Shown: positions 8,950-56,380, counted from the stretch's first letter. The stretch: DNA of 64,000 nucleotides from Minisyncoccia bacterium (GCA_049997795.1 JBEKVT010000002.1:129664-193663); one strand, 5' to 3'. Numbers and translations are program-made. Notes: generated by a model from the letters alone, not told the origin.

Positions 8950-9774
8950 TCATTTGGATTTCGGCTTAAGGTTCTTGTCCGGCGAGTTCAATTGAAGAAG
9001 GACCCAGCGCAATCCGGAAACGTTGACCGGCGGGGCGATGAGGATCTCGTCGAACGGATTCGATGGCCCGGAGACGACCGAGACGACGACACCGAAGGGA
9101 CCGTCGTAGAGCGACGGGTCGCTGACGAAGTCGCCGGCCGCGACGGACGAGCCGTGAGACAACTCGGCCCGGTACTGTCCGTCGCCGCGGCCGACGGCCG
9201 TGGCCGGCAGACGATCAGCGCCGATGAAGACGTTGTACGTTTCTCCGGGAGAGCTCAGCAGAGCCACCTCGGAGGTACGGGAAAGGACCGACACGACTCG
9301 GCCGATCAAGACATTGCCGGGAGCATAGACGAGGCTGGTCGTAGATACGCCATCGCTCCGACCGAGATCTATCGTCAATCCGTCATACGGCACCCATTGC
9401 GGGCGGGCGAGGACCGCCGCCAAGACGTACGGGGAGGGAGTGGTCGAGGCCCGGCCGAGCAAGGCCTTGAGCTCTGCGTTCTCGGTTTGGAGCATGGCCA
9501 CGGACGAGCTCGCGACATAGAGCTTCAGGGCGGCAAGCTCCGTTTGGAGAGCCGCGTTCTCAGCCAAGAGCTCCGCCGGCGATCGGAGGGCGCCGCTCTC
9601 TATCGAGAATCGCTCGCGCCAGAACGGCACGGCCAGGCTCGTGAAGAGCCCGGGGAAAACGGACGGCAAGGACCATTGGACGAGGATGACCAGGAATATC
9701 AAAAAGACGGCAGAGCCCAGGGCGGCGCGCTTCCGGCGCGACAGGGGCAGCTTATGAGGACGAAGGTATGTCAT
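8950..9774 (-). CDS. mreC: Rod shape-determining protein MreC
   Basis: N-terminal TM, coiled-coil 'ENAALQTELAALK...ENAELKALLG', C-terminal beta domain. Sits directly downstream of mreB and overlaps it by 23 nt. Confidence 0.75.
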   Translation of the reverse strand: MTYLRPHKLPLSRRKRAALGSAVFLIFLVILVQWSLPSVFPGLFTSLAVPFWRERFSIESGALRSPAELLAENAALQTELAALKLYVASSSVAMLQTENAELKALLGRASTTPSPYVLAAVLARPQWVPYDGLTIDLGRSDGVSTTSLVYAPGNVLIGRVVSVLSRTSEVALLSSPGETYNVFIGADRLPATAVGRGDGQYRAELSHGSSVAAGDFVSDPSLYDGPFGVVVSVVSGPSNPFDEILIAPPVNVSGLRWVLLQLNSPDKNLKPKSK

Positions 9775-10816
9775 CTTCGCTTTCGATCAAGACGGAGCGG
9801 TAACGGTCGATGTCTTCGAGGATGGCGCCGGCGCCCCGAGCCACGGCTGAGAGCGGGTCGTCGGCTATCGAGACCGGGAGCTTCAAGGTCTCGACGAGCA
9901 GGGCGTCGAGGCCTTTGATCAGAGCGCCGCCGCCCACGAGGTGCATGCCTCGGCGCATGACGTCGGAAAGGATCTCCGGCGGGGTGGTCTCCAGGACTTC
10001 TTTGGTCGCTTCGAGGATGGTCTCTATCGAGCTCGCCATGGCTTCGCGGATGTCGGAATCCGTGATGACGACTTCGCGAGGAAGCCCGGTGATGAGGTCG
10101 CGGCCGCGGATGGTCGTCTCCATGGGCTCGTCAGGCATGACCGCCCCGACGGCCATCTTCACCTGTTCGGCGGTGGTCTCGCCGATCAATATCTTGAATT
10201 CGTTCCTGATGTAAGAGACGATGTCGTTGTTCAATCGGTCGCCGGCGATCTTCAGGTTCTTGGAGCGGACGATGCCGCCGAGCGAGATCACGGCGATATC
10301 GGTCGTACCGCCGCCGATGTCGATGATCATCGAGCCGACGGGGTCGTGGACAGGCAGGCGGATGCCTATGGCCCCGGCCATGGGCTGCTCGATGATGTGG
10401 ACTTCGCGGGCGCCGGCGTTCCTCGTGGCGTCGCGCACGGCCCGGACTTCGACGTTGGTCACGCCGGAAGGCACACCGACCACCACTCTGGGCCCGAAAG
10501 GCTTCTTCGGCATGTATTCGGAGGCCCGCTTCATGAGGTAAGAGAGCATCTCCTCGGTCACTTCGAAGTCAGAGATGACGCCGTCGACGAGCGGCCTTAC
10601 AGCTGTGATATGGGCCGGCGTCCTACCGAGCATCTCTTTGGCGGCGGCGCCCACGGCCACCACCTGGCCGGTCTTCTCATTCACAGCCACGACCGACGGT
10701 TCGTTCACCACTATGCCCTTTCCGCGCACGTAAACAAGGGTATTTGCCGTGCCGAGGTCGATGCCAATATCGTTCGAAAAACGGCTGAAAAACCGGTCTT
10801 TCCACTCTTTGAACAT
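9752..10816 (-). CDS. mreB: Rod shape-determining protein MreB (actin-like)
   Basis: 'IGIDLGTANTLVYV', 'NEPSVVAV', 'DIGGGTTDIAVISLGGIV'. Confidence 0.9.
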   Translation of the reverse strand: MFKEWKDRFFSRFSNDIGIDLGTANTLVYVRGKGIVVNEPSVVAVNEKTGQVVAVGAAAKEMLGRTPAHITAVRPLVDGVISDFEVTEEMLSYLMKRASEYMPKKPFGPRVVVGVPSGVTNVEVRAVRDATRNAGAREVHIIEQPMAGAIGIRLPVHDPVGSMIIDIGGGTTDIAVISLGGIVRSKNLKIAGDRLNNDIVSYIRNEFKILIGETTAEQVKMAVGAVMPDEPMETTIRGRDLITGLPREVVITDSDIREAMASSIETILEATKEVLETTPPEILSDVMRRGMHLVGGGALIKGLDALLVETLKLPVSIADDPLSAVARGAGAILEDIDRYRSVLIESEDDIPSSS

Positions 10817-10906
10817 ACGGGAACATTACCACAAACCGCAAATATCGAGTAATTGACACCTCCACCTAAAAATGTTGAAAGATGCGGTTTTTTCTATACT
10901 AAATTT

Positions 10907-12142
10907 TTAGAGCGACTTCAGCTTTACCATCTCCACCTTCCCCGTCGCCCGGTCTTTGACCTCCACTGAATCGTCTTTAAGGGTTTTTTCGCTCACCACA
11001 TAGCGCTTGGGAATGCCAATAAGATCGGCGTCGCTGAATTTCTCGCCGGCGGAGGCTTCGCGGTCGTCGTACAGCACCTCGACACCCCTCTTCGTCATCT
11101 TGGTATACAAATCGTCAGCCGCCTTTTTCACCTTTCCCGCTTCGTCGTATAACGCCACCAGATGCACGGCGAACGGCGCCACTGATTCCGGCCAGACCAG
11201 TCCCTTGTCATCGGCATGGATCTCCACGATCGTGCCCATCACTCTGCCCGGACCGATGCCGTAGCTGCCCATGACGACCGGCTTGGACTTCCCCGCAGCA
11301 TCCTTGTAATTCAGGCCGAGCGCCTCGGAGAACCTAGTGCCCAACTGGAAGATGTTGCCGACTTCGATGGCCTTCTTCTCGACGAGCTCTTTCTTGTTCA
11401 GCTTTAGATCCTTGAGCACTTCGTCGCTCATGACCTCCTTGTTCACGGCGATCTTCTTGCCTTCATGCACATATATAGTATCCTCGCCGGCTTCGGAGAC
11501 CGTCTGGAACTCGTGGGAATATTTCGAGAACGAGCCGCCGGAGGAAAAAGTCACATAAGTCTCGGCGCCAAGGCCCAAGCGGTCGAATATCTTGACGTAC
11601 GCCTTCTTGGCCTTCTCGTAGAAAGCGTCTTGCTCCTTGACGTCCTTGCAGAACGAATATAGATCCTTCATCAGGAATTCCCTGCCGCGCAGGATGCCGC
11701 TCTTGGCCCGCTCCTCGTTGCGGAACTTGGTCTGGAATTGATAGACAGCCGTCGGCAGATCGCGGAACGAGCGGATGTGGTCCTTCATGAGGGCCGTCAG
11801 GGGTTCCTCATGGGTGAAGCTCAAACCGGTTTCGGCGCCGTTCTTGAACTTTGTCTTGAACCAATTATCCACCACCTCGTCGCTCCACCGGTTGGTCGTC
11901 TCCCATATCTTCTTGTCCTGAAGGGCCGCCAGGTAGACTTCCTGCCCGCCGATCGCGTCCATCTCATCGCGGATGACGTCGACGATCTTGTTCATGACGC
12001 GAAGGCCCAAAGGCAAGTATGAATAAACGCCTGCCATCTCCTTGTGGATGTAGCCGGCCCGGATCAGAAGCTCCGCGTTCTTGGCGACTTCGTCTTTGGG
12101 CGCTTCCCGGCGGGTCTTGGTGAAAAGCTGCGATTGGCGCAT
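10907..12142 (-). CDS. proS: Proline--tRNA ligase (short form without the INS editing domain)
   Basis: 'MRQSQLFTKTRREAPKD' N-terminus. Class II motifs ('FRNEERAKSGILRGREF'). 411 aa. Confidence 0.85.
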   Translation of the reverse strand: MRQSQLFTKTRREAPKDEVAKNAELLIRAGYIHKEMAGVYSYLPLGLRVMNKIVDVIRDEMDAIGGQEVYLAALQDKKIWETTNRWSDEVVDNWFKTKFKNGAETGLSFTHEEPLTALMKDHIRSFRDLPTAVYQFQTKFRNEERAKSGILRGREFLMKDLYSFCKDVKEQDAFYEKAKKAYVKIFDRLGLGAETYVTFSSGGSFSKYSHEFQTVSEAGEDTIYVHEGKKIAVNKEVMSDEVLKDLKLNKKELVEKKAIEVGNIFQLGTRFSEALGLNYKDAAGKSKPVVMGSYGIGPGRVMGTIVEIHADDKGLVWPESVAPFAVHLVALYDEAGKVKKAADDLYTKMTKRGVEVLYDDREASAGEKFSDADLIGIPKRYVVSEKTLKDDSVEVKDRATGKVEMVKLKSL

Positions 12143-12169
12143 GGCTGAATTGTAGCAGAGAATCGGCGA

Positions 12170-13258
12170 TTATTTAATCAGCCTGGCTATGTCCTGCCAG
12201 GTTACGATGACCATGAGCACCATGAGCAGGGCGAAGCCGGCGAGATTGACGGCGTTGATGACTTTGGCGGGTATGCGCCGGCGGACGGCGCCCTCGATGG
12301 CCACGACGAGGATGCGACCGCCGTCAAGGGCCGGGAATGGGATAAGGTTGACCACGCCGAGATTGATGGAGATGAGCGCCGTGACCATGAGGAGATAGGT
12401 GAAGCCCAGTTGGGCCGCGTTGCCGACGATGCCGGCGATGCCGACCGGCCCGGTCACTTCCGAGAAGTTCGGAGCGCCTCGGAAGATGTCGGCGACGAAG
12501 CCGTACAGGCTGACGAAAGTCTCTTTGATCAAGGTGAGGGTATAGCGCAAGCTCTCGGATACCGCATTGAAGAACGGCAGCTTAAGATCGACGACGTTGT
12601 CCATGGCTATGCCGATAGCGTACTTCCCCGTCACGAGGCCTGAGGCCGGTATGATCTCGACGGATTTCAATCCGGAGCCGCGCGCGTATTCCACGGAAAT
12701 GGTATGGCTAGCGACAGAATTGATCGTGTTTTGGATATCCGCTACTGATTGCCTGACCTTGCCGCCGACCGAGACGAACACGTCCCCTTCCTTGAGCCCG
12801 GCCTTCTCCGCCGGAGAATCCGGCAAGACGTAAGTGATCATGACGCGCTGATTATGGAAGAGATCGGCATACTTCTCGAAACCGTCGACCGAGGCTGTCA
12901 CGCCGGAAGCGAAGACCCCGGCGTAGAGGAGCCAGGCGAAGATGAAATTGGCGAGGACGCCGGAGGCGAGCACCAGGATCTGCTTTGAGCGCGGCTTATT
13001 GACGAGGCTTTTCGATGAATCCGGCCCGCTCGTGTTCTCCTCGTTCGGGTCCTCGCCGAAGATCTTGACGTAGCCGCCGAACGGGATCAAGTTCAGGGCA
13101 TATTCCGTCTCCTTCCCTTTCCAGGAGACGATCCGCGGCCCGAAGCCGAGGGCGAACTTGTCCACCCGGACGCCACAGGCCCTGGCCACGAGGAAATGGC
13201 CCAGCTCGTGGGCCAGGATGAGCGCCGCCAGGACGATGATGAAGACGAGGACGGTCAT
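12170..13258 (-). CDS. rseP: RIP zinc metalloprotease RseP (site-2 protease)
   Basis: 'HELGHF' HExxH motif in TM1. PDZ region. C-terminal 'LDGG' motif. Confidence 0.85.
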   Translation of the reverse strand: MTVLVFIIVLAALILAHELGHFLVARACGVRVDKFALGFGPRIVSWKGKETEYALNLIPFGGYVKIFGEDPNEENTSGPDSSKSLVNKPRSKQILVLASGVLANFIFAWLLYAGVFASGVTASVDGFEKYADLFHNQRVMITYVLPDSPAEKAGLKEGDVFVSVGGKVRQSVADIQNTINSVASHTISVEYARGSGLKSVEIIPASGLVTGKYAIGIAMDNVVDLKLPFFNAVSESLRYTLTLIKETFVSLYGFVADIFRGAPNFSEVTGPVGIAGIVGNAAQLGFTYLLMVTALISINLGVVNLIPFPALDGGRILVVAIEGAVRRRIPAKVINAVNLAGFALLMVLMVIVTWQDIARLIK

Positions 13259-13809
13259 CAGGAGAGGATCTCTTTTTCCTTCTTGGCGTACATCTCTTCC
13301 AGCTTCTTATTGGTCTCGTCCACGATCTTCTGGGTCTCGTTCTTCAGGCGGAAGACCTCATCCTTGCCGAAGCCGCTCGCCTTCTCCTTGGCCTGGAGGT
13401 CTTTGACGATCTGGTCGCGATGGCCGCGGACGTGCTTCTTGGCGTCCTCGAGCTTGTCCTTGGCCATCTTGGCGTAGTCCTTGCGCTTGTCCGACGTCAG
13501 CTCGGGGAAATTGACGCGCACGCCCTCCCCGTCGGCGGCCACGGACATGCCGAGATTCGCCTCGTTGACGGCTTTCTCTATCTCCTTCACCTGAGCCTTG
13601 TCCCACGGCGTGAGGCGCAGGGTCCGGGCCCCTTCTATGATGATGGAGGCCACTTCTTTCAAGGCCATGGGCGTGCCGTAGACTTCCACCCGCACGCCGT
13701 CGAGGACCGCCGGCGAAGCCTGGCCGGTCCTGATCTGGGTCAGTTCCTTCTTTAGCCATTCCTCGGCGCTCGCGAGATTCTTCTTGAATGGGTTGAAGTC
13801 GTAAGCCAT
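13258..13809 (-). CDS. frr: Ribosome recycling factor
   Basis: The start was trimmed from the track ORF 13258..13845 to 'MAYDFNPF...'. RRF-typical 'LTQIRTGQASPAVLDGVRVEVYG'. Confidence 0.85.
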   Translation of the reverse strand: MAYDFNPFKKNLASAEEWLKKELTQIRTGQASPAVLDGVRVEVYGTPMALKEVASIIIEGARTLRLTPWDKAQVKEIEKAVNEANLGMSVAADGEGVRVNFPELTSDKRKDYAKMAKDKLEDAKKHVRGHRDQIVKDLQAKEKASGFGKDEVFRLKNETQKIVDETNKKLEEMYAKKEKEILS

Positions 13810-13945
13810 CGGTACACGCATTATAACACGCATCGCACCAAGCAAGTATCGGGTTCGGGGACACGGATATTTTCCTGCCGGAAAATTCCTCGTGCTCGCG
13901 CCAGTCGCGCCCGCAAGGTCCCCTTACCCGACACTTGCTTGGAGC

Positions 13946-14629
13946 TCAGATGCTCAATGCTACGTATTCAAGGAGCATTTTGAGCGACGGTGCCCGGTCG
14001 TTCATGTACCTCCTCGCGGTTTCCACGGCCTCGAGCGCTCCGGCGTTTTTCTTCACGCTCCCTTCGTGGATCGTTTCCTCCAGAGCATTCAAAAAATCTA
14101 TGGCGTCCTGCTTCGGCCGTTTTTCTTTAGAGATATCGTCCATCAGGGATTTGACGGCGTCCAATCTTTGCTTAACAGATGATTTTACAAATCTCTCCGC
14201 TTCTTTCATAAGTTCGGAATCGGCGGCTGCCTTTGATCCCCCATTCCCGATGAATGACAGCCGCGATTTGACCGTCGGCAAGAGCAAATGCGCCGAAGGT
14301 ATGATCAAAAAGAAATGGGCACTCACCGGCGGCTCCTCGAGGAGCTTGAGCAAGGCGTTCTGGGCTTCGACCGTGATGCCATTCATCGTCAGGACGAACA
14401 TCTTCCTGCCGGATTCGCGGACCGGCTTCGTCTCGGCCGCCGATTTCACCTCGCGGGCGTCGTCTATCGTGAACGTCTCGTAAGCCCTGTCGAAGAAGTC
14501 CGGGTTGCCTGCGATTTTGATCTTATGGCCCCGCTCCAGGATTTTGATCAGTTCAGTTTTAACAGGACCGTCGCCGACTAGACAGTACGCGTGGTGCGAC
14601 AGGGATTCCAGGGCATCGGACAAATGCAT
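13946..14629 (-). CDS. holB: DNA polymerase III delta' subunit-like (clamp-loader AAA+ lid; the P-loop appears reduced)
   Basis: 'ALLKLLEEPP' sensor motif and 'LLPTVKSR'. 227 aa. Confidence 0.65.
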   Translation of the reverse strand: MHLSDALESLSHHAYCLVGDGPVKTELIKILERGHKIKIAGNPDFFDRAYETFTIDDAREVKSAAETKPVRESGRKMFVLTMNGITVEAQNALLKLLEEPPVSAHFFLIIPSAHLLLPTVKSRLSFIGNGGSKAAADSELMKEAERFVKSSVKQRLDAVKSLMDDISKEKRPKQDAIDFLNALEETIHEGSVKKNAGALEAVETARRYMNDRAPSLKMLLEYVALSI

Positions 14630-14778
14630 GCCTGTATTGTAGCAAAAAAGAGGCCTCTCCCGGCATGCCGGAAGAGGCCTGATGAACGGAACCGAACTCT
14701 TGGAGAACCAGTCCCGTTCGGGGACGGGAGGGAAAGCTAATGATAATCTTCCTAGGCGATCTTTGTCAACCCCTTATT

Positions 14779-15801
14779 TTATCTCTTCGCCACGATGGCT
14801 TTCTTGTAGACGTCCAGGTGCTCGAGGGCGATGCCGGTGCCTTTGGCGACGCAAAGCAGAGGGTCTTCGGCAAGCTCCGCCTTGACGCCGATCCGGCGGA
14901 AGACGAGCTCGGGGAAATGCCTAAGGAGCGAGGAACCGCCGGTCATGGTGATGCCTTGGTCGATGATGTCGGCCGCGAGCTCCGGCGGCGTCTCCTGGAG
15001 GACATCCTTCATGGCCTTGATCATGTCTCGAAGGGGCGCGGCCACGGCCTTGACGATCTCGTTGGTCTTGATCTCAGTCGAGCGCGGCAGGCCGGAGATG
15101 AAGTCCCGGCCCTTCACGGTCATGCCGAGCTCGGCCTCGAGCGGGATGGCCGAGCCGATCTGGATCTTGATGATCTCCGCCATGTGGTCGCCGATCCAGA
15201 GATTGAAGACCTTCTTGATGTGGTCGGCGATGGCGGCGTCGAGCTTGTTCCCCGCGCATTTGACGGAGATGGAGGAGACGATGCCCCCGAGCGAGATGAC
15301 CGCTATGTCGGTGGTGCCGCCGCCGATGTCGACGACCATGTGGCCGCGGGCTTCCTGGATGGGGATGCCGGCGCCGATAGCGGCCAGGACCGGCTCCTTG
15401 ACCACGTAGGCATTCTTGGCCCCGGCCCGGATGGCCGCCTCTATGACGGCCCGGCGCTCGGTCGAAGTGACCGAAGCAGGCACGGAGATCATGACGTCTG
15501 GCTTGAAGAAGCCCAGGCGGCCGAGGGCTTTGTCCATGAAATAGCGCAGCATGGCCTCGGTGATGCGGTAATCGGCGATGACGCCATCCTTCATCGGCCG
15601 GTAGGCCACGATCGATTCCGGGGTCCGGCCGACCATCTCCTTGGCGTCGTTCCCCACCGCCAGGACCTTCTTGTCCACTTCGGAAACGGCCACCACAGAC
15701 GGCTCGTTAAGGATGATGCCCTTGCCGGGCACGAAGACCAGAGTGTTGGCCGTGCCCAAATCGATGCCCAGTTTGGGGGCGAAAAAGCTCATGAAACGCA
15801 C
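14779..15801 (-). CDS. mreB: Second MreB-like actin homologue
   Basis: 'LGIDLGTANTLVFV', 'DIGGGTTDIAVISLGGIV'. A paralogue of the gene at 9752..10816. Confidence 0.85.
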   Translation of the reverse strand: MRFMSFFAPKLGIDLGTANTLVFVPGKGIILNEPSVVAVSEVDKKVLAVGNDAKEMVGRTPESIVAYRPMKDGVIADYRITEAMLRYFMDKALGRLGFFKPDVMISVPASVTSTERRAVIEAAIRAGAKNAYVVKEPVLAAIGAGIPIQEARGHMVVDIGGGTTDIAVISLGGIVSSISVKCAGNKLDAAIADHIKKVFNLWIGDHMAEIIKIQIGSAIPLEAELGMTVKGRDFISGLPRSTEIKTNEIVKAVAAPLRDMIKAMKDVLQETPPELAADIIDQGITMTGGSSLLRHFPELVFRRIGVKAELAEDPLLCVAKGTGIALEHLDVYKKAIVAKR

Positions 15802-17231: not shown

Positions 17232-17453
17232 TCACGGTCTCGTCTCGTGGGACGGGGCCGGCTCGGCCGGAGCGGGAGAGGTTTTCCAGGTCCAACCGAG
17301 AAAATGGCCTACGACCCAGAGCACGCCTGCCGCGACGACGAAGATGATGATCGCCTTGGGCGCGGAGATCTTCTCCGACCTTGAAGAACTGTTGTAATCG
17401 AGCGGAGAGCTCATATGGCGTCTTATTGCTCCTTTCGAGATACGTAATAGCAT
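17232..17453 (-). CDS. Small single-TM protein (hypothetical)
   Basis: One hydrophobic helix 'IIIFVVAAGVLWVVGHFLGW'. No recognisable family. Confidence 0.3.
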   Translation of the reverse strand: MLLRISKGAIRRHMSSPLDYNSSSRSEKISAPKAIIIFVVAAGVLWVVGHFLGWTWKTSPAPAEPAPSHETRP

Positions 17454-17503
17454 CTATAGGATCTTTGTCAAGTATTTAAATGCCCTGAAAATAAGGTATA
17501 ACT

Positions 17504-19501
17504 ATGGCAATGAATCTGATCGCCGTCATCCCCCTCTCCCGCCTCAAGGTGGCTCCGACGCTCTCGTACTTCACTTCCTCGGAGGTGCCGGTCGGCGCGG
17601 TGGTGACCGTGCCCCTCCGGTCGAGGTCGGTCCACGCTATCGTGGCCGAAGCGCGCCGGGCCGAGGACTTGAAGGCCGAGCTCCGGAGCGCCCCGTACGA
17701 GATACGGAAGCTCGGCAAGGTCAAGGCCGGGGCCTTCTTCTCGACCGCTTTCATGGATTCGTGCCGAACGCTCGCCGACTGGTACGGGACGAATACCGGA
17801 GCCGTGGTCAAAGCCATGGTCTCCGAGACGATCTTGGAGAACGCCCATAGGATCGCCCCGCCCTTGCCGCTCCAGCCGAGCTTCCTAGGCGCCGAACCGG
17901 CCCCGGACGAGACCTACGCCGTAGAGGGAGACGACGCCGACCGCATGAGCTCGTGGCGGAGCCTCATCCGCCAGGAATTCGCCCGCAAGAAATCGGTGGC
18001 CGTCTACGTCCCGACCATCGAAGACGCCAGGCGGACCTTCGCCGCTCTGGAAAAAGGCATCGAAGGCTATATCATCCTCCTTCACGGGGGTCTTTCGAAG
18101 AAGAAGGCTTTGGAGGCTTGGGCGGCCGCGGCCGAGAACCGGCATCCGGTCGTGGTGGTGGCCACCGCTTCTTTTTCCGTCCTGCCGCGGGGCGACGTCG
18201 AGACCGTCGTCATCGAGCGGGAGAACAGCCGCGGCTGGGTCTCCCAGAGGGCGCCCTGCCTCGACCTGCGCCGGGCCCTGGAGGCCGCGGCGAGGCGAGA
18301 GCATCGGACCGTTTTCCTCTCGGATTGCTTGCTCCGAGTCGAGACCTTGAAGCGCCTGGACGAGCACGAGATCGCCCCGGGCACGCCATTCAAGTGGCGG
18401 TCCGTCTCCACAGCCAAGGATTCCTTGATAGACATGCGCCGCGTCCCGAAAGCCGGCGTCCCGGCGACGGCCAAGGGCAAACCAGGATCGGACGAAGAAA
18501 AACAACCCTTCAGAGTCATTTCGGCCGAGCTCGAGAGCTTGATAGCCGAGAATCGCCGCGACAGCACCCATCTTTTCATCCTGACGGCGAGGCGCGGCCT
18601 CTCGCCGATCACGACCTGCGACGATTGCGGCACCGTCGTCCTTTGTTCCCAATGTTCCGCTCCGGTCGTCCTGCACGCCTCGAAGGAGACTGGAGCGCCG
18701 GGCGGCAGGCAGGGCCTGCCTGCCGGTAGGCATGGCAAGAATTTCTTCATGTGCCATGTCTGCGGCGAGCGCCGGAGCGCCGAGGAGACCTGCAAGAACT
18801 GCGGCAGCTGGCGGCTCTCGCCCCTCGGCATCGGCATCGATCGGGCCGAGCAGGAGATCCGGGAGGGATTCCCGGATATAGACATGTTCAAGATAGACGC
18901 CGACGCCACCAAGACGGAGGGAGAGATGGCCGAGGTCATGGAGAAGTGGAAAGCAAGGCCCGGCAGCGTCCTCCTCGGCACGGAAGCGGCCCTCTCGCGC
19001 CTTGCCGCTCCGGTCGACCACGCGGCGGTGGTCTCGCTCGATTCCCTGTTCGCCCTGCCGGATTTCCGGATAACGGAGAGAGTGATGTATCTTCTGGTCC
19101 GCCTGCGGGCCGCCGTGAGCCGCTCCATCCTGGTCCAGACCAGGCGGCCGGAGGAGAAGATCTTTGAGTACGGCCTGAAGGGCAATTTGAGCGATTTTTA
19201 CCACGCCGTCCTCTCCGAGCGCCGGCGCTTCGATTACCCGCCATTCTCCACCCTGATCAAGATCACCCTCGAGGGCAAGAAGGACAGGATCGCCAAGGAG
19301 ATGGGCGAGCTGCAGGCCTTCCTCGCGCCGCACGACGTAGACGTCTTCCCCGCCTTCACCTCGACCGTCCGCGGCGCTTCCGTCATCCACGGCCTCATCA
19401 GGGTCCCGTCGAAGCATTGGCCGGAGCCGGAGCTCGTGGCCAAACTGCGGTCTTTGCCGCCCGGCGTTTCCGTCAAGATCGACCCGGAATCGCTATTGTA
19501 G
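17504..19501 (+). CDS. priA: Primosomal protein N' (PriA)-like with degenerate helicase motifs
   Basis: PriA Cys4 zinc-ribbon 'CDDCG...CSQCS...CHVCG...CKNCG'. Collinear with PriA through the helicase C-terminal and WH/CTD regions. Walker A is replaced by 'ARKKSVAV'. The DEEH box is replaced by 'IEREN'. Confidence 0.7.
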   Translation: MAMNLIAVIPLSRLKVAPTLSYFTSSEVPVGAVVTVPLRSRSVHAIVAEARRAEDLKAELRSAPYEIRKLGKVKAGAFFSTAFMDSCRTLADWYGTNTGAVVKAMVSETILENAHRIAPPLPLQPSFLGAEPAPDETYAVEGDDADRMSSWRSLIRQEFARKKSVAVYVPTIEDARRTFAALEKGIEGYIILLHGGLSKKKALEAWAAAAENRHPVVVVATASFSVLPRGDVETVVIERENSRGWVSQRAPCLDLRRALEAAARREHRTVFLSDCLLRVETLKRLDEHEIAPGTPFKWRSVSTAKDSLIDMRRVPKAGVPATAKGKPGSDEEKQPFRVISAELESLIAENRRDSTHLFILTARRGLSPITTCDDCGTVVLCSQCSAPVVLHASKETGAPGGRQGLPAGRHGKNFFMCHVCGERRSAEETCKNCGSWRLSPLGIGIDRAEQEIREGFPDIDMFKIDADATKTEGEMAEVMEKWKARPGSVLLGTEAALSRLAAPVDHAAVVSLDSLFALPDFRITERVMYLLVRLRAAVSRSILVQTRRPEEKIFEYGLKGNLSDFYHAVLSERRRFDYPPFSTLIKITLEGKKDRIAKEMGELQAFLAPHDVDVFPAFTSTVRGASVIHGLIRVPSKHWPEPELVAKLRSLPPGVSVKIDPESLL

Positions 19502-19527
19502 CCGTTCCATGATACATTTTTCCCAAT

Positions 19528-20061
19528 ATGTCTGAGATCGTAGGGCGCGACAACCCGATATTGCGGGGCAGGGCCAAGACGGTGCCGAGAAGCGACATCG
19601 GCTCCGATCGCTTGAAGAAGATCGTCGCCCGCCTGAGGGCCGCCCTGGCTCCCGAGAAGGACGGCATCGCCATCGCCGCGCCGCAGATCGGCGAGCCGAT
19701 CCGCCTTTTCCTCGTCTCGGGCGAGCTCTTGAAGAAAGCCGACAAGACCTACAAGGGCGACGGCTCCGACATGGTCTTCATAAATCCGGAGATCACCCGG
19801 CGGTCGCGGGACAAGAAGGAGGTCGAGGAGGGCTGCTTGTCCATCCGCTGGCTCTACGGCAAGGTCAAGCGCTCGACCCGCGTCACTTTGACCGCTCTGG
19901 ACGAGAACGGCGCCAAGATCGAACGCGGCGCGAGCGGCCTCCTGTCGCAGATCTTCCAGCACGAGGTCGATCATCTCGACGGCGTCCTTTTCACCGACAA
20001 GGCCCGGGAGATATGGGAGCTTTCGCCGGAAGAGATCGCCGAACTGCAGAATAAGCCCTGA
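19528..20061 (+). CDS. def: Peptide deformylase
   Basis: 'GIAIAAPQIG', 'EGCLS', 'QHEVDHLDG' motifs. Confidence 0.9.
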   Translation: MSEIVGRDNPILRGRAKTVPRSDIGSDRLKKIVARLRAALAPEKDGIAIAAPQIGEPIRLFLVSGELLKKADKTYKGDGSDMVFINPEITRRSRDKKEVEEGCLSIRWLYGKVKRSTRVTLTALDENGAKIERGASGLLSQIFQHEVDHLDGVLFTDKAREIWELSPEEIAELQNKP

Positions 20062-20079: not shown

Positions 20080-20949
20080 ATGGTGAGCAAAGACATCAAA
20101 ATAGGATTCTTCGGGACGCCGGAATACGCCGCGACGACGCTCGAGCATCTGCAGAAAGCGGGCTTCAGCCTGAAGTTCGTCGTGACCAATCCGGACCGGC
20201 CGAGGGGCCGCGGCTTGGCCGTGACCGCTCCGCCCGCGAAGGTCTGGGCCGAAAAGCACGGCGTGCCCGTCCTCCAGCCGGAGACATTGCGCGGCAATAA
20301 GGAGCTCGCGGAAAAATTGAAATCCTACGGCTGCGACGTATTCATAGTGATAGCCTATGGAAAGATCATCCCTGAAGAAATATTCGATATCCCGCCGAGG
20401 AAGACTTTGAATATCCACGGCTCTCTTTTACCGAAACTGCGCGGAGCAAGCCCGATCGAGACCGCTATCCTGGAAGACCTGAGGGAGACCGGGGTGACCG
20501 TCATGCGCGTGGACGGCCTTTTGGATCACGGGCCGATCGTCGCGCAGAGAAAGGTCAGGGTCGAGCCATGGCCCCCATCGGCCCGCGAGTTGGGCGCGAA
20601 GATCGTCGAGGAAGGCGCAAGGCTGATCGTGGAGATCCTGCCGGACTGGGTAGCCGGGAAGATCCTGGAGACCGAGCAAAACCACGCCGCCGCGACCTTG
20701 ACCAAGAAGATATCCAAAGAAGACGCGCTTCTCGACCTTAAGGCAGACCCGTACGAGAATTTCCGGAAGGTCCAGGCCTTCAGCGAATGGCCCGTAGCTT
20801 ACTTCCTCGCGGAGCGCGGCGGCAAAAAGATCCGGGTGAAGATAACCCGGGCCTCATGGAAGGACGGCAAGCTCGAGATAGAGAAAGTCGTGCCGGAAGG
20901 AGCCAAAGAGATGGCTTACGGGGATTTTCTCAAAGGGCATCGTCTCTAG
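20080..20949 (+). CDS. fmt: Methionyl-tRNA formyltransferase
   Basis: 'IGFFGTPEYAA' N-terminus. 'NIHGSLLPKLRGASP' motif. Sits directly downstream of def. Confidence 0.9.
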   Translation: MVSKDIKIGFFGTPEYAATTLEHLQKAGFSLKFVVTNPDRPRGRGLAVTAPPAKVWAEKHGVPVLQPETLRGNKELAEKLKSYGCDVFIVIAYGKIIPEEIFDIPPRKTLNIHGSLLPKLRGASPIETAILEDLRETGVTVMRVDGLLDHGPIVAQRKVRVEPWPPSARELGAKIVEEGARLIVEILPDWVAGKILETEQNHAAATLTKKISKEDALLDLKADPYENFRKVQAFSEWPVAYFLAERGGKKIRVKITRASWKDGKLEIEKVVPEGAKEMAYGDFLKGHRL

Positions 20950-22088: not shown

Positions 22089-22162
22089 TTCCGGAGTAGC
22101 TCAGCGGTAGAGCAGTCGCCTGTTAAGCGATTGGTCGGTGGTTCGAATCCACCCTCCGGAGC
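22089..22162 (+). tRNA. tRNA-Asn (anticodon GTT)
   Basis: Cloverleaf folded by hand. Acceptor TCCGGAG/CTCCGGA. T-arm GGTGG-TTCGAAT-CCACC. Anticodon loop CTGTTAA. Confidence 0.8.
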
Positions 22163-22183
22163 CGGTTGTGATATAATCCCGCC

Positions 22184-22396
22184 ATGGATCCCGCGGTGGA
22201 AAAGGAGCTGCGCGAGCAGCGCGAGCTCATCGAGAAGATATACGTCTCGGTCGAAAAGACCAGGAAGTATTACCTTTGGACGGTGTGGGGCACGGTCATC
22301 ATCTTCGTCGTGCCGCTCATCATCCTGGCCTTCGTCTTGCCTTCATTCATGAACACCTATTCCAGCTACTTGACCGGCAGCGGATTGGGTCTGTAG
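22184..22396 (+). CDS. Small membrane protein (hypothetical)
   Basis: 70 aa with one TM ('TVWGTVIIFVVPLIILAFVL'). Immediately downstream of tRNA-Asn. Confidence 0.35.
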   Translation: MDPAVEKELREQRELIEKIYVSVEKTRKYYLWTVWGTVIIFVVPLIILAFVLPSFMNTYSSYLTGSGLGL

Positions 22397-22515
22397 GAGC
22401 AGGTTTTGAGCCATATAACGGCAGACACCGGAACCTGGAACGAGAGAACTCATAACAGGGCCTGTGTTGATAAGCTCATGATGATTTGCTTTCGTAAAAG
22501 GGTTACAATATAGCC

Positions 22516-22845
22516 GTGACTCACGAAGAGAACGTTAAGAGCGCCAGAGCTTTGTGGTCGGTCCTCGCCGCGACCGCTTTGATCGGGGTGGCGTATTACA
22601 TCTCTGTCGCCTGGGGCAGCGAAAACTGGGCCATGACCAATTCCCTGTCGCCAGCGGAGGCACAGAGGATCATGGAATCCCTGAAGACGAACCGGGCCAG
22701 CGCCGATCAGAACCCGACCTTGACGCCGGAACAGCAAAAAGCGCTCAACGCTCTGAAAGAGCCCGCTTCAAAGGCCTCGCAACCTTCGCAGAACGAAGCG
22801 CCGGAGGTGAACACCGCCCTGCTCGACGCCTTGAAGGCCCATTAA
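22516..22845 (+). CDS. Membrane-anchored hypothetical protein
   Basis: N-terminal TM, Ala/Gln/Pro-rich tail. Confidence 0.4.
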   Translation: MTHEENVKSARALWSVLAATALIGVAYYISVAWGSENWAMTNSLSPAEAQRIMESLKTNRASADQNPTLTPEQQKALNALKEPASKASQPSQNEAPEVNTALLDALKAH

Positions 22846-22881
22846 TAGATCTGCAACGCTTAACAAAATAACTTTACAAAC

Positions 22882-24927
22882 ATGCGCCGCCACATGATCA
22901 TCGCCTCAGTCGCCGCCGGAGCCCTCATCGTCGGTCCTCTTCTCGTCCTGGCCGACTGGACCGCCGCCCCGGCCAGCCCGCCTTCCAGCAACGCCAGCGC
23001 TCCTTTGAACGTGAGCAGCACGGACCAGGCCAAGGCTGGCGGCCTTCAAGTGGCTTCTTTCATTTCCACTGGCGGCGCGGAAATAGGGAGCGTATCAGGA
23101 CTCTTGGGCGTCGGTATCAGTCCGAGCTACAAGCTCGACGTCTTGGGCGACATCAACTACACCGGCACCTTCTACCATAACGGCACAGCAGTCTCCTTCG
23201 GCGGCAGCCAGTGGACGACTACGGGTTCTGACATCTATTACAATACCGGCAAGGTTGGCATCGGAACGACGGGGCCAACTTATCCACTTGATGTTCAATC
23301 AAGTACAGGAAATGCCGTGATCAGGGCAAAAAGTACCGCTACCGCTGGCCAATCTTTTATTTTGATAGACCGGGCCACTATTTCTTCGGGAAATGCGGCA
23401 TCGGTTGGTTGGTTGACAAATGGTACATATGATTGGGGGCTTGGAACCTCACAGGGGTCTGCTGGTTCGAGCGACTGGAGCCTCTATAATTATGGGACTT
23501 CAGGCAACGCCATCACTGTTCTAAAGTCGAACAGCAACGTCGGCATCGGAACGGTGAGCCCAGGGTATAAACTGGAAGTCAACGGCAACACGAAGATCGA
23601 TACTGATTTGTATTTATTTAATACGGTATTAAATCCTGCCTCGGGATTTTCAAACCAGAGGGGGGCAGGCTTTAATTCTGCTACCGGAGCATTCGAAGTT
23701 GCAGCGAATAACGTTTCTCCTCTAACGGTAGGCAGATTTGGTGGTACTGGTTCGTTGATTAATTTCAGATACGCAGGCACGAGTATGGGAGATATTTCAA
23801 CTGACGGCACAAATTTGTCTATTATGCCTACCGGCTATGTCGGCATCGGGACGGTGAGCCCGGGGTATAAACTGGAAGTTTATGGGGGTGGTGTGAAAAT
23901 AAACGGCGGTGATCTTTACATTGCTAACACTGCCGCCCAAACAGCCACACAGCTCATCAGCTACAGTAACGCAAACAGTCTCTGGTTGATCCAGCCGACC
24001 ACGCAAAACCTTGTTCTCGCCGATAGCTTAAGTTGGGACCGCAGTATGTCTATTCAATACACTGCCGGCACAACAGGAGCAGGTGCCGGACAGTTGATCA
24101 TCGGGCAAATCAGTAAAAACGCCGGTACTTACACTCATGGGATCACATCTCTGTACACTAATGGTCTGGAAAGAATGAGGATCGATGCTAGCGGCCTTGT
24201 TGACATTGGGATGACCGGAGGAGATCAGAAACTAAACGTTAACGGTCAAATACACGTTTATAATGGCTCAAGCGTGAGCGCTGGCTACGTCTACAGCGAC
24301 AGCTCCGGCTTTGGTTTGTTGAACAATAATGGGAGCTGGATTTCCCGTACTCCGCTTGGCTCAACGGATACTTACTTCAGCACTACCGTCAGCATCAACT
24401 CGAGCAACCCGCTCTACTTCAACACCTACGGCGGCGGCTGGTACATGGTTGACAGCACTTATATAAGAGCGTACAACGATAAATATGTCTATACGGGTGG
24501 CATGATAGAGTCGGGTTCCAGCATGTATTCTCCGATCTACTACGACCTCAACAACAGCGGCTACTATCTCGATCCCGCCAGCACATCCAACCTCAATATC
24601 GTATACGCCCAGGTCTACTACTATTCGGACGCCAATCTGAAAAAGAACGTGGAGTCGCTGTCTTCGGCCGATTCGCTCAAAAAGATCATGGCCCTCGATC
24701 CGGTGACATTCGAATGGAAAGACTCGTCTCGCGGTACGGGTACGAACCTCGGCCTCATAGCCCAGGACGTGGAAAAGGTCCTGCCCGAGGCGGTCCACAC
24801 CGGAAAGGACGGAAAGGCTATAGACCTCGAAGGCTTGTCGGCGTCCATCATATCCGCCATGCAAGAGCAGCAGAAAGAGATAGACGCCCTGACGGCGAGA
24901 GTTAAGGCGCTCGAGGCCAGGCAATAA
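22882..24927 (+). CDS. Large secreted tail-fibre-like protein with a C-terminal intramolecular-chaperone (peptidase S74, endosialidase-chaperone) domain
   Basis: Signal peptide. Repeated 'VGIGT(T/V)SPGYKLEV' modules, with 50-bp near-identical DNA repeats at 23538 and 23838. The C-terminus reads 'LDPVTFEWKDS...GLIAQDVEKVLPEAV...IDLEGLSASIISAMQEQQKEIDAL...LEARQ'. Confidence 0.7.
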   Translation: MRRHMIIASVAAGALIVGPLLVLADWTAAPASPPSSNASAPLNVSSTDQAKAGGLQVASFISTGGAEIGSVSGLLGVGISPSYKLDVLGDINYTGTFYHNGTAVSFGGSQWTTTGSDIYYNTGKVGIGTTGPTYPLDVQSSTGNAVIRAKSTATAGQSFILIDRATISSGNAASVGWLTNGTYDWGLGTSQGSAGSSDWSLYNYGTSGNAITVLKSNSNVGIGTVSPGYKLEVNGNTKIDTDLYLFNTVLNPASGFSNQRGAGFNSATGAFEVAANNVSPLTVGRFGGTGSLINFRYAGTSMGDISTDGTNLSIMPTGYVGIGTVSPGYKLEVYGGGVKINGGDLYIANTAAQTATQLISYSNANSLWLIQPTTQNLVLADSLSWDRSMSIQYTAGTTGAGAGQLIIGQISKNAGTYTHGITSLYTNGLERMRIDASGLVDIGMTGGDQKLNVNGQIHVYNGSSVSAGYVYSDSSGFGLLNNNGSWISRTPLGSTDTYFSTTVSINSSNPLYFNTYGGGWYMVDSTYIRAYNDKYVYTGGMIESGSSMYSPIYYDLNNSGYYLDPASTSNLNIVYAQVYYYSDANLKKNVESLSSADSLKKIMALDPVTFEWKDSSRGTGTNLGLIAQDVEKVLPEAVHTGKDGKAIDLEGLSASIISAMQEQQKEIDALTARVKALEARQ

Positions 24928-24948
24928 AAGGGACAAGGAATAAGGAAG

Positions 24949-25914
24949 ATGAAAGACTTCTTCAAAAAACCGCTTTCCGAGACCGCTCTTATCGTCATCG
25001 CTCTTGTCGCAGGCGCCGGCATCGTCTATGCCGCCGCCAACAGCTTCAGCGCCCCGGGAAGCGGCGCCCAGACTTCGATCACCACGAACTTCGGCTGCCA
25101 GAAGGTAACGAACAACACCGGCTCCACCCTCTTCGTGCCAGCCAACACGTCGGCCGAGTGGAATTCCTTCTTGAACCATCTCCCCTCCGGGGTGACCATC
25201 TCTGCCTGCTGCGCCGGCAATTACGGCCAGACGTGCTACTCGGCTTACAACGACTGCGGCCAGAGGAATTCCAGCACTTATGACTGTTCCGGAAACTGCC
25301 CGGCCACCACTCCCGCCGATCCCTCATACTACGGCCAGACGTGCTACTCTAGCTATAACGACTGCAGTCAGAGGAACTCCGGAACGTATAACTGCAGCGA
25401 TGTCTGTTCGGCTTCGACGCCAGCCGATCCAAGTTACTACAACACCAGCTGTTCAGTGACATCGCCACAGAACTCTTGCGGCCAGACTCAGCAATGTGGA
25501 GGTACCTATAATTGTGCTGATACATGCGTCACTGGGACTTGCAATGCTCCTTCCAATAGCGGCTGTCCGATATACGGCTGCACTGACTCGAATGCCTTCA
25601 ACTACAACTCGGGCGCCAATACCAACGACGGCTCGTGCCATTACAACGGCTGCTACACGGTCTACTACGATCTGTATACATTCGGGTACTATGGAGGCGA
25701 TGCTATAGACATCTGTCGCGATAACGTGTATGGCCCGGACAGCTCCGGTCAGTGGCTTGGAACTTGCTCTGGCATCTCGACATGTACGAATGATGCGGCC
25801 TCATACAGTAATAATCTCAGTCTCCCCCACTATAACCAATGTGATGACTGGTCAACAAACCAAAGCGGTGTTGGCATTATCACTTCAGTCGACACTCCGT
25901 ATTCCTGCAATTAG
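24949..25914 (+). CDS. Secreted Cys-rich protein with internal tandem repeats
   Basis: N-terminal TM/signal. About 120-bp tandem DNA repeats encode 'YYGQTCYS.YNDC.QRNS.TY.CS..C.A.TPADPSYY'. There are more than 30 Cys. Confidence 0.55.
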   Translation: MKDFFKKPLSETALIVIALVAGAGIVYAAANSFSAPGSGAQTSITTNFGCQKVTNNTGSTLFVPANTSAEWNSFLNHLPSGVTISACCAGNYGQTCYSAYNDCGQRNSSTYDCSGNCPATTPADPSYYGQTCYSSYNDCSQRNSGTYNCSDVCSASTPADPSYYNTSCSVTSPQNSCGQTQQCGGTYNCADTCVTGTCNAPSNSGCPIYGCTDSNAFNYNSGANTNDGSCHYNGCYTVYYDLYTFGYYGGDAIDICRDNVYGPDSSGQWLGTCSGISTCTNDAASYSNNLSLPHYNQCDDWSTNQSGVGIITSVDTPYSCN

Positions 25915-25944
25915 CGCGACCCCTAAGCTAATCCTCATCCAAAA

Positions 25945-26427
25945 ATGAACAAGATCGTAAAATATGTGGTCGGGATCGTCGCGGTAGCCATAATAATAGC
26001 CGTGCTCGTGCTCGGTTATCTCACGTATCAAGGACAGGCTCCGACAGCGGTCGCGCCAAAGGGAGCGCCTGTCTCCACGCCGGTAAACCCCGCTGCCCTG
26101 CTCCGTACGCCCAACGCCTCGTCGACCCAACAGGAACGCGGCTCGTATTTCGACCTTGTGACGAAGAACGCCGTGGAGACTGGCTCTATCGACATAACCT
26201 CTTGTTCGCCGAACCCCGTGGCTTCCTCGGTCAAAAAAGGCGCCGACCTGACCTTCGTCAATAAAGACAGCATGTCTCACACCGTCGCGTTCAACCCGGC
26301 TCAGTCTTTCACCGTCGGCACCACTTCCTCGAAGACGGTGAAGGCGGACTTCGGGAAGTTCTTGGGTATATATCCTTTCAGTTGCGACGGGTCTAGGAAC
26401 CCTGTGGGCATCGTCGTCTTGAAGTGA
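25945..26427 (+). CDS. Membrane-anchored hypothetical protein, possibly a cupredoxin-like beta-sandwich
   Basis: N-terminal TM. 'SMSHTVAFNP...FSCDGSRNPVG' is weakly plastocyanin-like. No confident assignment. Confidence 0.45.
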   Translation: MNKIVKYVVGIVAVAIIIAVLVLGYLTYQGQAPTAVAPKGAPVSTPVNPAALLRTPNASSTQQERGSYFDLVTKNAVETGSIDITSCSPNPVASSVKKGADLTFVNKDSMSHTVAFNPAQSFTVGTTSSKTVKADFGKFLGIYPFSCDGSRNPVGIVVLK

Positions 26428-26455
26428 GCGGCCCCTTATGAGATAACGGACATCA

Positions 26456-26753: not shown

Positions 26754-27350
26754 CTTTACTCTCTTGAGGAAACTCCGGCGATGCTCCGGCGTCAGGCCGT
26801 GCTTCCGGATGGCACGATAATGAGCCTTGGTGCCGTAGCCTTTGTGCACCTCGAAGCCGTGATGCGGATATTTCCTCGCCAATCTCTTCATGCGCCGGTC
26901 GCGCAGGACCTTGGCGCAGATCGAGGCTAGGGCGATGACCCGCTCCTTCGAGTCGCCGTCTATGATGGTCGTCTGGTCCGTATAGCGCCCGGAGGCGTAG
27001 AGCAAACCGTCAAGGAGGATCTTCGAGTCCGGCGAGACGGCGAAGCGGCGTTCGAGCTTCTTCAAGGCGCGATTCAGAGCTGAATATATGGCTGGCGAAA
27101 GGCCCTTCCCGTCGATGGTCTCGGCCCGGCTGAATGAGACAGCGTATAGCGCTTCCCCGTCCTCCATGCGGCTTCTTATCGCCCTGAACCACTCTTCCCT
27201 TTGCTTCTCGGAGAGCTTTTTCGAGTCCTTGACGCCGCGGAATCTCGTGAGGGCCGCTTTCGACCGGACGGCGAAAGCGCCCACCGCCACCGGACCAGCC
27301 AAAGGCCCTCGTCCTGCTTCGTCGACGCCGATTAGATGCTTCCTCGCCAT
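26742..27350 (-). CDS. rnhB: Ribonuclease HII
   Basis: 'LIGVDEAGRGPLAGPV' catalytic N-terminus. Confidence 0.9.
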   Translation of the reverse strand: MARKHLIGVDEAGRGPLAGPVAVGAFAVRSKAALTRFRGVKDSKKLSEKQREEWFRAIRSRMEDGEALYAVSFSRAETIDGKGLSPAIYSALNRALKKLERRFAVSPDSKILLDGLLYASGRYTDQTTIIDGDSKERVIALASICAKVLRDRRMKRLARKYPHHGFEVHKGYGTKAHYRAIRKHGLTPEHRRSFLKRVKIKK

Positions 27351-27396
27351 ACGGTCAATTCTACCACTGATTATCTGTTATACTAATCCTACCGCC

Positions 27397-37981: not shown

Positions 37982-38036
37982 AGCTCCGATAATTTAGCAC
38001 GGAAATCCGTGGAACACAAGGAAAATCCCTGTTATA

Positions 38037-56365: not shown

Positions 56366-56380
56366 AGGATGATTATACTA

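Follow-up and report, generated by a model that had tools for sequence, protein, structure and literature searches.

The 64,000-nucleotide stretch of Minisyncoccia bacterium DNA analyzed here (GCA_049997795.1, JBEKVT010000002.1:129664-193663; hereafter the window) encodes a homolog of PriA, the primosomal protein N', in which the nucleotide-binding motifs of the helicase are lost or replaced and most elements known to contact DNA are kept. We propose, with a probability of about 0.72, that this protein is a PriA pseudohelicase that would recognize forks and recruit the replicative helicase without unwinding. The same degenerate form recurs throughout a large family from Parcubacteria and related lineages, and a large bacterial group probably restarts replication without PriA motor activity. 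An initial annotation of the window had likewise described a PriA without helicase activity, retained in a small-genome lineage for replication restart or primosome loading, a predicted function that gains support here. It had also called the protein unusual, which holds only in part, as published precedents exist in the Deinococcus-Thermus pseudohelicase (PMC4504706) and in the K230R and K230A forms of E. coli PriA (PMC5778457, PMC10175261).

A PriA ortholog that falls below curated thresholds

The gene is a single uninterrupted open reading frame (ORF; Table 1) preceded by an AAGG sequence 7 nucleotides upstream of its 17504 start. An in-frame alternative ATG at 17510 yields the 663-residue protein stored in databases, and most relatives begin at the counterpart of this second methionine. 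The stored protein, a 100% match, is labeled 'MAG: hypothetical protein ABSF56_03150 [Minisyncoccia bacterium]' at NCBI, and JGI names the same protein 'primosomal protein N''.

Comparison with solved structures bore out the initial assignment to PriA. A phmmer search of PDB sequences matched PriA alone, from K. pneumoniae and E. coli (E 4.5e-30), a profile hidden Markov model (HMM) of the family matched PDB PriA at E 3.7e-68, and matches by fold reached 2.6e-38. Identity to E. coli PriA is nevertheless only ~22%, and among NCBIfam models only those for PriA were hit, all below their curated cut-offs: TIGR00595 scored 187.0 bits (E 4.9e-55) against a cut-off of 230.35 bits and NF004066 187.9 bits against 813, with the cut-offs of the curated PRK05580 and PRK14873 PriA models lying at 763-1249 bits. 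These shortfalls explain the NCBI label of hypothetical protein. In Pfam, the sole above-threshold match was the PriA 3'-end-binding domain (3'BD) PF17764, at 28.1 bits (cut-off 22.7); DEAD, ResIII and Helicase_C gave no match at threshold, and neither the Pfam nor the NCBIfam scan of the protein matched RecG, Mfd, RadD or UvrB-like families.

The nucleotide-binding motifs are lost or replaced

Motif columns were read from a MAFFT alignment of 503 full-length relatives with four canonical PriAs. The column of the Walker A lysine (E. coli Lys230) is occupied by Arg147 in the window protein and by arginine in 502 of the 503 relatives, against lysine in all four canonical proteins. This register was recovered in three MAFFT alignments and, independently, by the profile HMM against PDB, which matched the conserved arginine to the lysine of GKT. 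The canonical GVTGSGKT has given way to a family pattern 'Q-x-d-d-x-e/d-R' that contains no glycines, and in the AlphaFold2 (AF2) model the helix following strand 1 starts at residue 144, so that only a two-residue loop is predicted at the P-loop position. No GxxxxGK[ST] occurs at this position in the window protein or in any relative examined. The initial annotation, which rightly reported Walker A and DExH as lost, had taken 'ARKKSVAV' (aa 160-167) for the Walker A site; that segment instead falls opposite E. coli 'AQGKQALV', immediately ahead of motif Ia, and the true site is GDDADRM.

The remaining nucleotide motifs are similarly altered. Where canonical PriA has DEEH, the first motif II column is Glu in 442 and Asp in 61 of the 503 relatives, the second, that of the catalytic glutamate, is Arg in 255, His in 100, Lys in 85 and Asn in 24, the third is Glu in 491 and the fourth is mainly Asn (233) or Ser (220). 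The Q segment is deleted, motif III is replaced and motif VI is shortened (Table 1), although one motif VI arginine persists in 115 of 151 sequences. Motifs Q, I, II, III and VI are thus missing in recognizable form from the window protein and from all 503 relatives, a degeneration shared by orthologs rather than peculiar to one genome. Consistent with this, the precomputed Pfam domains of the relatives comprise PriA_3primeBD only, whereas the canonical PriAs retrieved alongside them have DEAD, ResIII and Helicase_C.

The residues that now fill the former ATP pocket are near-invariant (Arg147 in 502 and Glu240 in 491 of 503 relatives), and the charge pattern of the pocket is inverted, with the P-loop position acidic and the catalytic glutamate position basic. 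Judged from these alignments, the residues that contact nucleotide in superfamily 2 (SF2) helicases are gone, while DNA-touching residues and PriA-specific modules are preserved, and the protein is very probably ATPase-dead. A still-active ATPase or translocase using a non-canonical nucleotide site could draw on the confidently predicted RecA-like fold of both lobes, on the persistence of motifs IV and V and of the single motif VI arginine, and on a weaker second nucleotide site that was proposed for E. coli PriA and never located (PMC5778457). We consider such an enzyme very improbable, as phosphate-loop glycines and the Q segment are missing, the catalytic glutamate has become basic and the GRAGR arginine fingers are deleted; moreover, K230R alone abolishes the ATPase activity of E. 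coli PriA (PMC5778457, PMC4504706).

Fork-contact and zinc elements are retained

In contrast to the nucleotide site, the surfaces through which PriA holds DNA are largely preserved. Cryo-electron microscopy of E. coli PriA on a fork shows the 3'BD holding the leading-strand 3' end, a lobe 1 loop wedged into the junction, lagging-strand single-stranded DNA (ssDNA) held in a pore formed by the Cys-rich region (CRR), lobe 2 and the C-terminal domain, and the winged-helix (WH) domain docked onto parental duplex DNA, 10-20 bp away from the junction (PMC10175261). The window protein has an N-terminal 3'BD with a terminal-nucleotide pocket, in which the pocket tyrosine (E. coli Y18) corresponds to Y22 and is conserved in 497 of 503 relatives, and the K61 column is Lys or Arg in 497 of 503; the Asp17 column of the pocket is Ser or Thr in the family.

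Within the helicase core, the DNA-contact motifs are kept with minor changes. Motif Ia reads P-T-I against the canonical P-E-I, its P170 being at least 90% conserved in the broad family, and the threonine of GTRS in motif Ic is invariant in a broad 53-sequence alignment. Motif IV retains R363 (498/503) and G365 (502/503), and motif V retains T493 (500/503) with Glu in the former Gln column in 141 of 151 sequences. The loop that corresponds to the E. coli wedge keeps an aromatic residue (Y, W or F) in 147 of 150 representatives, followed by Lys or Arg in 126 of 150. An ERRxFxYPPF element is conserved just upstream of the C-terminal domain.

The zinc ribbon is intact, as the initial annotation had stated. 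All eight cysteines (C372, 375, 381, 384, 417, 420, 430 and 433) are present, each in at least 497 of 503 relatives, and the region aligns with the CRR of PDB PriA, so that lobe 2 would contain the four CxxC pairs of a two-zinc region. Between the second and third CxxC pairs lies a Gly/Pro/Arg-rich insertion (aa 395-411, 18686-18736) that is modeled with a predicted local distance difference test (pLDDT) score below 50 and is absent from the family consensus of close relatives.

Predicted architecture and loss of the WH domain

An AF2 model built with a 60-sequence alignment reached a pLDDT of 84 and a predicted template modeling score of 0.82. It predicts retention of the SF2 core of two RecA-like lobes, with pLDDT 87-96 in lobe 1, which aligns with K. 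pneumoniae PriA from residue 249 on (Table 1). In a Foldseek search of the PDB, PriA structures ranked first, with E from 2.6e-38 to 2e-27 and template modeling (TM) scores of 0.65-0.72, whereas other SF2 helicases (Upf1, Mfd, RecG and RadD) matched more weakly, at E 1e-6 to 1e-8 and TM 0.2-0.4. The C-terminal α/β domain is confidently predicted, in line with the earlier description, and is probably that of PriA, which has an S10-like fold; full-length Foldseek matches to PriA exist, and PF18074, the Pfam model of the PriA C-terminal domain, is undetected in the window protein and present in few relatives.

Canonical PriA carries its WH domain ahead of the helicase lobes, on their N-terminal side. 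The circularly permuted WH expected between the 3'BD and the helicase core is missing here: E. coli residues ~109 to 215 fall opposite gaps in the alignment, and a 23-residue linker stands in their place, with pLDDT below 50 at aa 128-132 and a family mean pairwise identity of 0.17. The segments without counterpart are the WH domain itself, residues 109-181 of E. coli PriA (PMC5778457), and the following stretch up to the P-loop, including the Q-motif-like LNTEQ. The initial annotation is therefore corrected in its claim of collinearity with PriA along the whole length and its listing of a retained WH, which it had moreover placed after the helicase lobes. The best TM score normalized by query length (0.72) was obtained with 6DCR, an engineered E. 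coli PriA without the WH, which is consistent with a natural loss of this domain.

Table 1 Features of the priA-like gene, its product and the two genes downstream.
Feature	Nucleotides	Residues	Strand	Remarks
priA-like gene	17504..19501	1-665	+	uninterrupted ORF in the ORF list, 665 aa plus stop
3'BD	17504..17839	1-112	+	PF17764; model pLDDT 79-94
Linker in place of WH domain and Q-motif segment	17840..17908	113-135	+	low confidence, poorly conserved
RecA-like lobe 1	17909..18433	136-310	+	lacks nucleotide-binding motifs; predicted alternating β/α, pLDDT 87-96
Pseudo-P-loop GDDADRM	17927..17947	142-148	+	R147 in the Walker A Lys column (E. coli Lys230)
Motif Ia remnant VPTIED	18008..18025		+	canonical VPEIxL; DNA-contact motif kept
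Pseudo-motif II EREN	18215..18226	238-241	+	in place of DEEH, from alignments
Aromatic/basic loop SRGWVSQRAPCLDLRR	18227..18274	242-257	+	counterpart of the E. coli fork-junction wedge loop DSSYKQQEGWRYHARD
Pseudo-motif III LSDCL	18317..18331		+	in place of GSATP; family consensus g-D-x-l-L-R
Variable insert		311-339	+	from the AF2 model
Lobe 2, interrupted by the CRR		340-578	+	from the AF2 model
Motif IV ARRG	18587..18598		+	canonical NRRG; kept
CRR, inserted in lobe 2	18608..18811	369-436	+	four CxxC pairs, two putative Zn sites
Motif V LGTEA	18974..18988		+	canonical GTQM; G-T kept, Q replaced by E
Motif VI remnant RLRAAVSR	19100..19123		+	in place of QVAGRAGR; five-residue deletion; family 'rlr..t..'
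C-terminal domain	19238..19498	579-665	+	predicted β-α-β-β-α-β, pLDDT 73-95
def (peptide deformylase)	19528..20061		+	Pfam Pep_deformylase; 26 nucleotides downstream of priA
fmt (methionyl-tRNA formyltransferase)	20080..20949		+	Pfam Formyl_trans_N

The degenerate form defines an old and constrained family

To place the protein among its relatives, we used a HMMER search of 1.84 billion cluster representatives and two further searches seeded from divergent members. The first, an exhaustive one, gave 980 clusters at the 50% identity level that reached E<=1e-30; the top 150 of these are 34-57% identical to the query and 570-710 residues long. Pairwise identity within the family falls to 26%, indicating that it is old. 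With a protein identity of 69% to the closest ortholog, saturation of synonymous sites is to be presumed, and constraint was accordingly gauged from per-domain conservation: mean pairwise identity is 0.38 in the 3'BD, 0.41 in lobe 1, 0.48 in the CRR, 0.43 in lobe 2 and 0.40 in the C-terminal domain. The identity of lobe 1 matches that of the other domains, which argues for constraint rather than decay, and by this measure the dead lobe appears to be under the same constraint as the remainder of the protein.

The family is also discrete. With its most divergent member as query, family sequences scored at least 246 bits and canonical PriAs, which followed, at most 94 bits. Searches from three members returned only Parcubacteria-type names and then passed straight to distant canonical PriAs; all 507 relatives gathered around these queries are of the degenerate type, and the three very distant canonical PriAs recovered carry the Pfam domains DEAD, ResIII, Helicase_C, PriA_CRR and PriA_C.

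The identical protein occurs on 18 contigs from independent assemblies (JGI, ENA and others), the largest of which, Ga0427927_000007, measures 657 kb; this rules out an assembly or sequencing error. A frameshift hiding the motifs, which would have undone the initial annotation, is ruled out as well: none of the P-loop, DExH and GRxGR patterns occurs in a relevant place in the three forward frames of 17401-19600 or in the six frames of the window. The chance that the gene is a decaying pseudogene or an artefact, as its hypothetical-protein label and its scores below the curated PriA cut-offs might suggest, is in our view practically nil given the intact ORF, the identical copies, the empty alternative frames and the hundreds of full-length relatives in which all domains are strongly conserved.

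The gene occupies the syntenic priA position

Directly downstream of priA, on the same strand, lie def and fmt (Table 1), and def and priA probably form one operon; murA lies upstream and is divergent. We examined 80 related loci from GTDB species genomes, gathered by a scan that reaches close relatives and extending 6-10 kb around each match. Most of them keep the order murA | priA-def-fmt | hpf; with counts limited to loci with enough sequence, def lies directly downstream in 53 of 67, fmt downstream in 50 of 58 and murA upstream in 60 of 69. The order priA-def-fmt is shared by the canonical priA loci of many bacteria, Bacillus subtilis among them, and it supports orthology over a stray paralog. 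We read the gene as the vertically inherited priA ortholog of a genome from the Patescibacteria or candidate phyla radiation (CPR), specifically Minisyncoccia/Paceibacterota (Parcubacteria).

Named relatives belong to Candidatus Paceibacterota, Parcubacteria, Taylorbacteria, Nomurabacteria, Wolfebacteria, Zambryskibacteria, Candidatus Paceibacter and Minisyncoccia or Minisyncoccota, NCBI placing Minisyncoccia within the phylum Minisyncoccota. Many records labeled 'uncultured Candidatus Saccharibacteria' also occur; these are TPA metagenome assemblies, and we do not take their names as evidence for that class.

A second PriA-like sequence was sought by tblastn with E. coli PriA and with the window protein, and none was found in the 64-kb window. 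A second intact priA, which would have overturned the initial annotation, is therefore lacking within this stretch. If the protein were a paralog, with an intact canonical priA elsewhere performing helicase-dependent restart, that gene would have to lie outside the 64-kb window, in a genome that measures at least 657 kb. This scenario is improbable, as the genomes are very small, with the gene found on contigs of 0.66-1.0 Mb, the gene sits in the syntenic priA-def-fmt slot, the JGI annotation of this very protein is primosomal protein N', and 507 of 507 relatives are degenerate, the only canonical PriAs recovered being the three very distant matches.

Further upstream, beyond murA, a block on the minus strand (8950-15801) contains mreC (8950-9774), two MreB/actin-like genes (9752-10816 and 14779-15801), holB, encoding the DNA polymerase III δ' subunit (13946-14629), and frr, encoding ribosome recycling factor; in many related genomes murA, mreB and holB form a block that keeps synteny with priA. 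On the other side, dnaE (27088-30636, plus strand) and a gene for RNase HII (~26.7-27.3 kb, minus strand) are located within 10 kb of the gene.

A proposed passive platform for replication restart

All fork-contact elements except the WH are conserved, and on this basis we propose that the protein acts as a passive platform for fork or D-loop recognition and helicase recruitment. The 3'BD pocket would bind the nascent leading-strand 3' end and, together with the wedge loop of lobe 1, recognize an abandoned fork or D-loop, while the lagging-strand template ssDNA would be held on motifs Ia, Ic, IV and V in the channel formed by the CRR, lobe 2 and the C-terminal domain. The CRR and neighboring surfaces may then serve as the platform that brings in DnaB, directly or through a loader. 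The lagging arm would not be unwound, and the protein would act on substrates that need no such unwinding.

The state of the former ATP pocket can be fitted to this scheme. The inverted charge pattern and the near-invariance of the replacement residues can be read as a permanently closed pocket, in which salt bridges probably link the acidic pseudo-P-loop, Arg147 and the basic motif II residue. Such a latch would explain why these residues hardly vary.

It is likely that the protein is the cell's restart PriA and acts as the proposed platform. Several points weigh against this conclusion. The loss of ATPase activity is deduced from sequence; the search for a second priA was limited to the window, in a genome no smaller than 657 kb; and no gene for DnaB, DciA, DnaC/DnaI, DnaD, PriB or DnaT, any of which might mark a partner, was found among the scanned window ORFs. 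Fork recognition may differ from that of E. coli PriA, whose WH domain docks on the parental duplex; here that domain is lacking and Asp17 is replaced. Finally, Arg147 and Glu240 are so nearly invariant that the pocket might still bind a ligand and not be merely structural.

This last point, together with the loss of the WH domain and the large gap in score to canonical PriA, leads to an alternative in which the protein is a repurposed PriA derivative whose structure-specific DNA binding would serve some other process, for instance the control of recombination, the protection of forks, or initiation that is origin-independent or of a plasmid/phage type, with the former ATP pocket binding another ligand or partner. 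The conservation of Arg147 and Glu240 does exceed what purely structural filler strictly needs. We nevertheless consider repurposing unlikely, because the priA-def-fmt position is kept, every element that helicase-independent restart is known to require (3'BD, CRR, DNA-contact motifs and the predicted C-terminal domain) is kept, and no second PriA is present in the window to take over the restart role. A pseudohelicase that recognizes forks and recruits the replicative helicase remains our preferred reading.

Comparison with known PriA proteins

Canonical PriA, as represented by the E. coli and K. pneumoniae proteins (PDB 4NL4, 6DGD and 8FAK; TIGR00595), shares with the window protein the 3'BD, two RecA-like lobes, eight-cysteine region and, probably, the C-terminal α/β domain, as well as motifs Ia, Ic, IV and V, the wedge loop, an ERRxxxxPP(F/W) element and the def-fmt neighborhood. 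It differs in possessing the WH domain and Q segment and in its nucleotide motifs, GSGKT being replaced by DDADR, DEEH by EREN and GSATP by LSDCL in the window protein, with GRAGR deleted.

According to published descriptions, bacteria at large conserve the helicase motifs of PriA, and Deinococcus-Thermus is the sole exception noted (PMC4504706, PMC5778457); a 2017 review names Deinococcus (PMC5778457). In D. radiodurans PriA the Walker A lysine is an arginine, ATPase and helicase activity are absent, and the protein binds ssDNA, forks and DnaB (PMC4504706). A role in restart through fork binding and contact with DnaB was proposed for it (Lopper et al. 2015, PMC4504706), and PriB and DnaT are not recognizable in D. 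radiodurans (PMC4504706); neither was seen in this 64-kb window. The window protein shares with this pseudohelicase the Lys-to-Arg change in Walker A and non-consensus motifs I and II (R147 and EREN). In contrast to the Deinococcus-Thermus proteins, motifs III and VI and the Q segment are degenerate as well, the WH is deleted, and the phylum (Minisyncoccota/Patescibacteria) is distant; the loss in D. radiodurans was moreover demonstrated biochemically, whereas the window protein is known from its sequence. Given the taxonomic distance and the different extent of degeneration, the loss was presumably independent of that in Deinococcus-Thermus.

Laboratory alleles of E. coli PriA provide a second point of comparison. 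The priA300 product (K230R), which carries the same Lys-to-Arg change as the window protein, has no ATPase, helicase or translocase activity, yet it is active in restart assays and leaves cells nearly wild type (PMC5778457), and K230A PriA is routinely used for loading of DnaB on forks in vitro (PMC10175261). As these and the K230D allele illustrate, PriA without ATPase activity can assemble a primosome, load DnaB and sustain near-wild-type growth. The E. coli alleles, however, carry one altered residue in a PriA that is otherwise canonical and acts together with PriB, DnaT and DnaC, and the helicase-dead allele fails in the PriA-PriC pathway; in the family described here, by contrast, natural selection has remodeled the entire nucleotide site and fixed the result. 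The engineered WH deletion in 6DCR offers a parallel of another kind, as its 3'BD is joined directly to the helicase core and the family profile aligns further N-terminal on 6DCR than on full-length PriA, although its ATPase motifs are intact.

The concept of a helicase-dead PriA is thus already published, and the window holds no new kind of system. In the open-access papers and bioRxiv preprints searched, we found no link between loss of PriA motifs and Patescibacteria or Parcubacteria; such an absence is not proof of novelty, and within that literature the Parcubacterial lineage and the WH-less form appear undescribed. We give even odds to the broader proposition that a whole major branch of the CPR (Parcubacteria/Paceibacteria, including Taylorbacteria, Nomurabacteria, Wolfebacteria, Zambryskibacteria and relatives, in hundreds of clusters) carries a self-latched, WH-less PriA pseudohelicase, a second origin independent of Deinococcus-Thermus that converges on the Lys-to-Arg change of priA300.

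If this proposition is true, restart in these ultrasmall symbionts would be obligatorily helicase-independent and would proceed by a DnaB-loading route free of PriB and DnaT. A second and much larger lineage without the motifs would make helicase-independent restart a recurrent natural solution, extending a known oddity to a major bacterial radiation, and evolution would have made permanent a condition that the E. coli K230R allele reproduces in the laboratory. As a minimal natural PriA composed of a 3'BD, a dead core, a zinc region and a C-terminal domain, the protein could help to study fork recognition and helicase loading apart from unwinding, and could serve the search for loading partners that are independent of PriB and DnaT. 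The family also exposes an annotation gap: most of its NCBI records are labeled hypothetical protein and score below the PriA thresholds, so that gene-content surveys could wrongly report Parcubacteria as lacking PriA or, working from JGI labels, wrongly assume an active helicase.

Other features of the window

Several further features of the window lie outside the priA locus. A 424-residue protein (1059-2333, plus strand) contains a full-length TraT domain (E 1.3e-67, residues 207-423). TraT is a surface-exclusion and complement-resistance lipoprotein of enterobacterial conjugative plasmids, and its family is unexpected in a Patescibacteria genome. The plus-strand region 22090-26430 comprises a tRNA-Asn gene (22090-22163), small hypothetical ORFs, a 681-residue Peptidase_S74 protein (22882-24927) and two hypothetical ORFs. 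Peptidase_S74 domains are intramolecular chaperones of phage tail fibers and endosialidases, and the region could be a prophage remnant or encode a host-attachment fiber; its ORF pattern varies slightly between contigs, with a downstream ORF of 259 or 321 residues.

The longest ORF of its region, 36747-38633 on the minus strand (628 residues), has release-factor domains (PCRF and RF-1) only at residues 328-598. Its N-terminal ~300 residues have no Pfam match and may be a true extension, a separate gene or a longest-ORF artefact of high-GC DNA; its 3' end overlaps a tRNA-Arg gene (36694-36766, plus strand) by ~20 nucleotides. A bacterial class A RNase P RNA is found at 51782-52111 on the minus strand (106.1 bits against an Rfam gathering score of 100), and the 110-codon ORF that overlaps it (51743-52075, minus strand) is presumably spurious. 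A ribonucleotide reductase of 774 residues (52205-54529, minus strand), with an ATP-cone and a B12-dependent (class II) insertion domain, shows that this small genome keeps de novo deoxynucleotide synthesis.

The GC content drops to 0.45-0.52 over 56000-64000, compared with ~0.59 elsewhere in the window. This stretch contains a C5 cytosine DNA methylase (60166-61377, minus strand), a LexA homolog with LexA_DNA_bind and Peptidase_S24 domains (61484-62155, plus strand), an overlapping 168-residue ORF (62152-62658, plus strand) and a SMODS/DncV-like nucleotidyltransferase (62662-63669, plus strand), and may be an acquired island in which a CBASS-like defense gene lies beside a LexA-type repressor.

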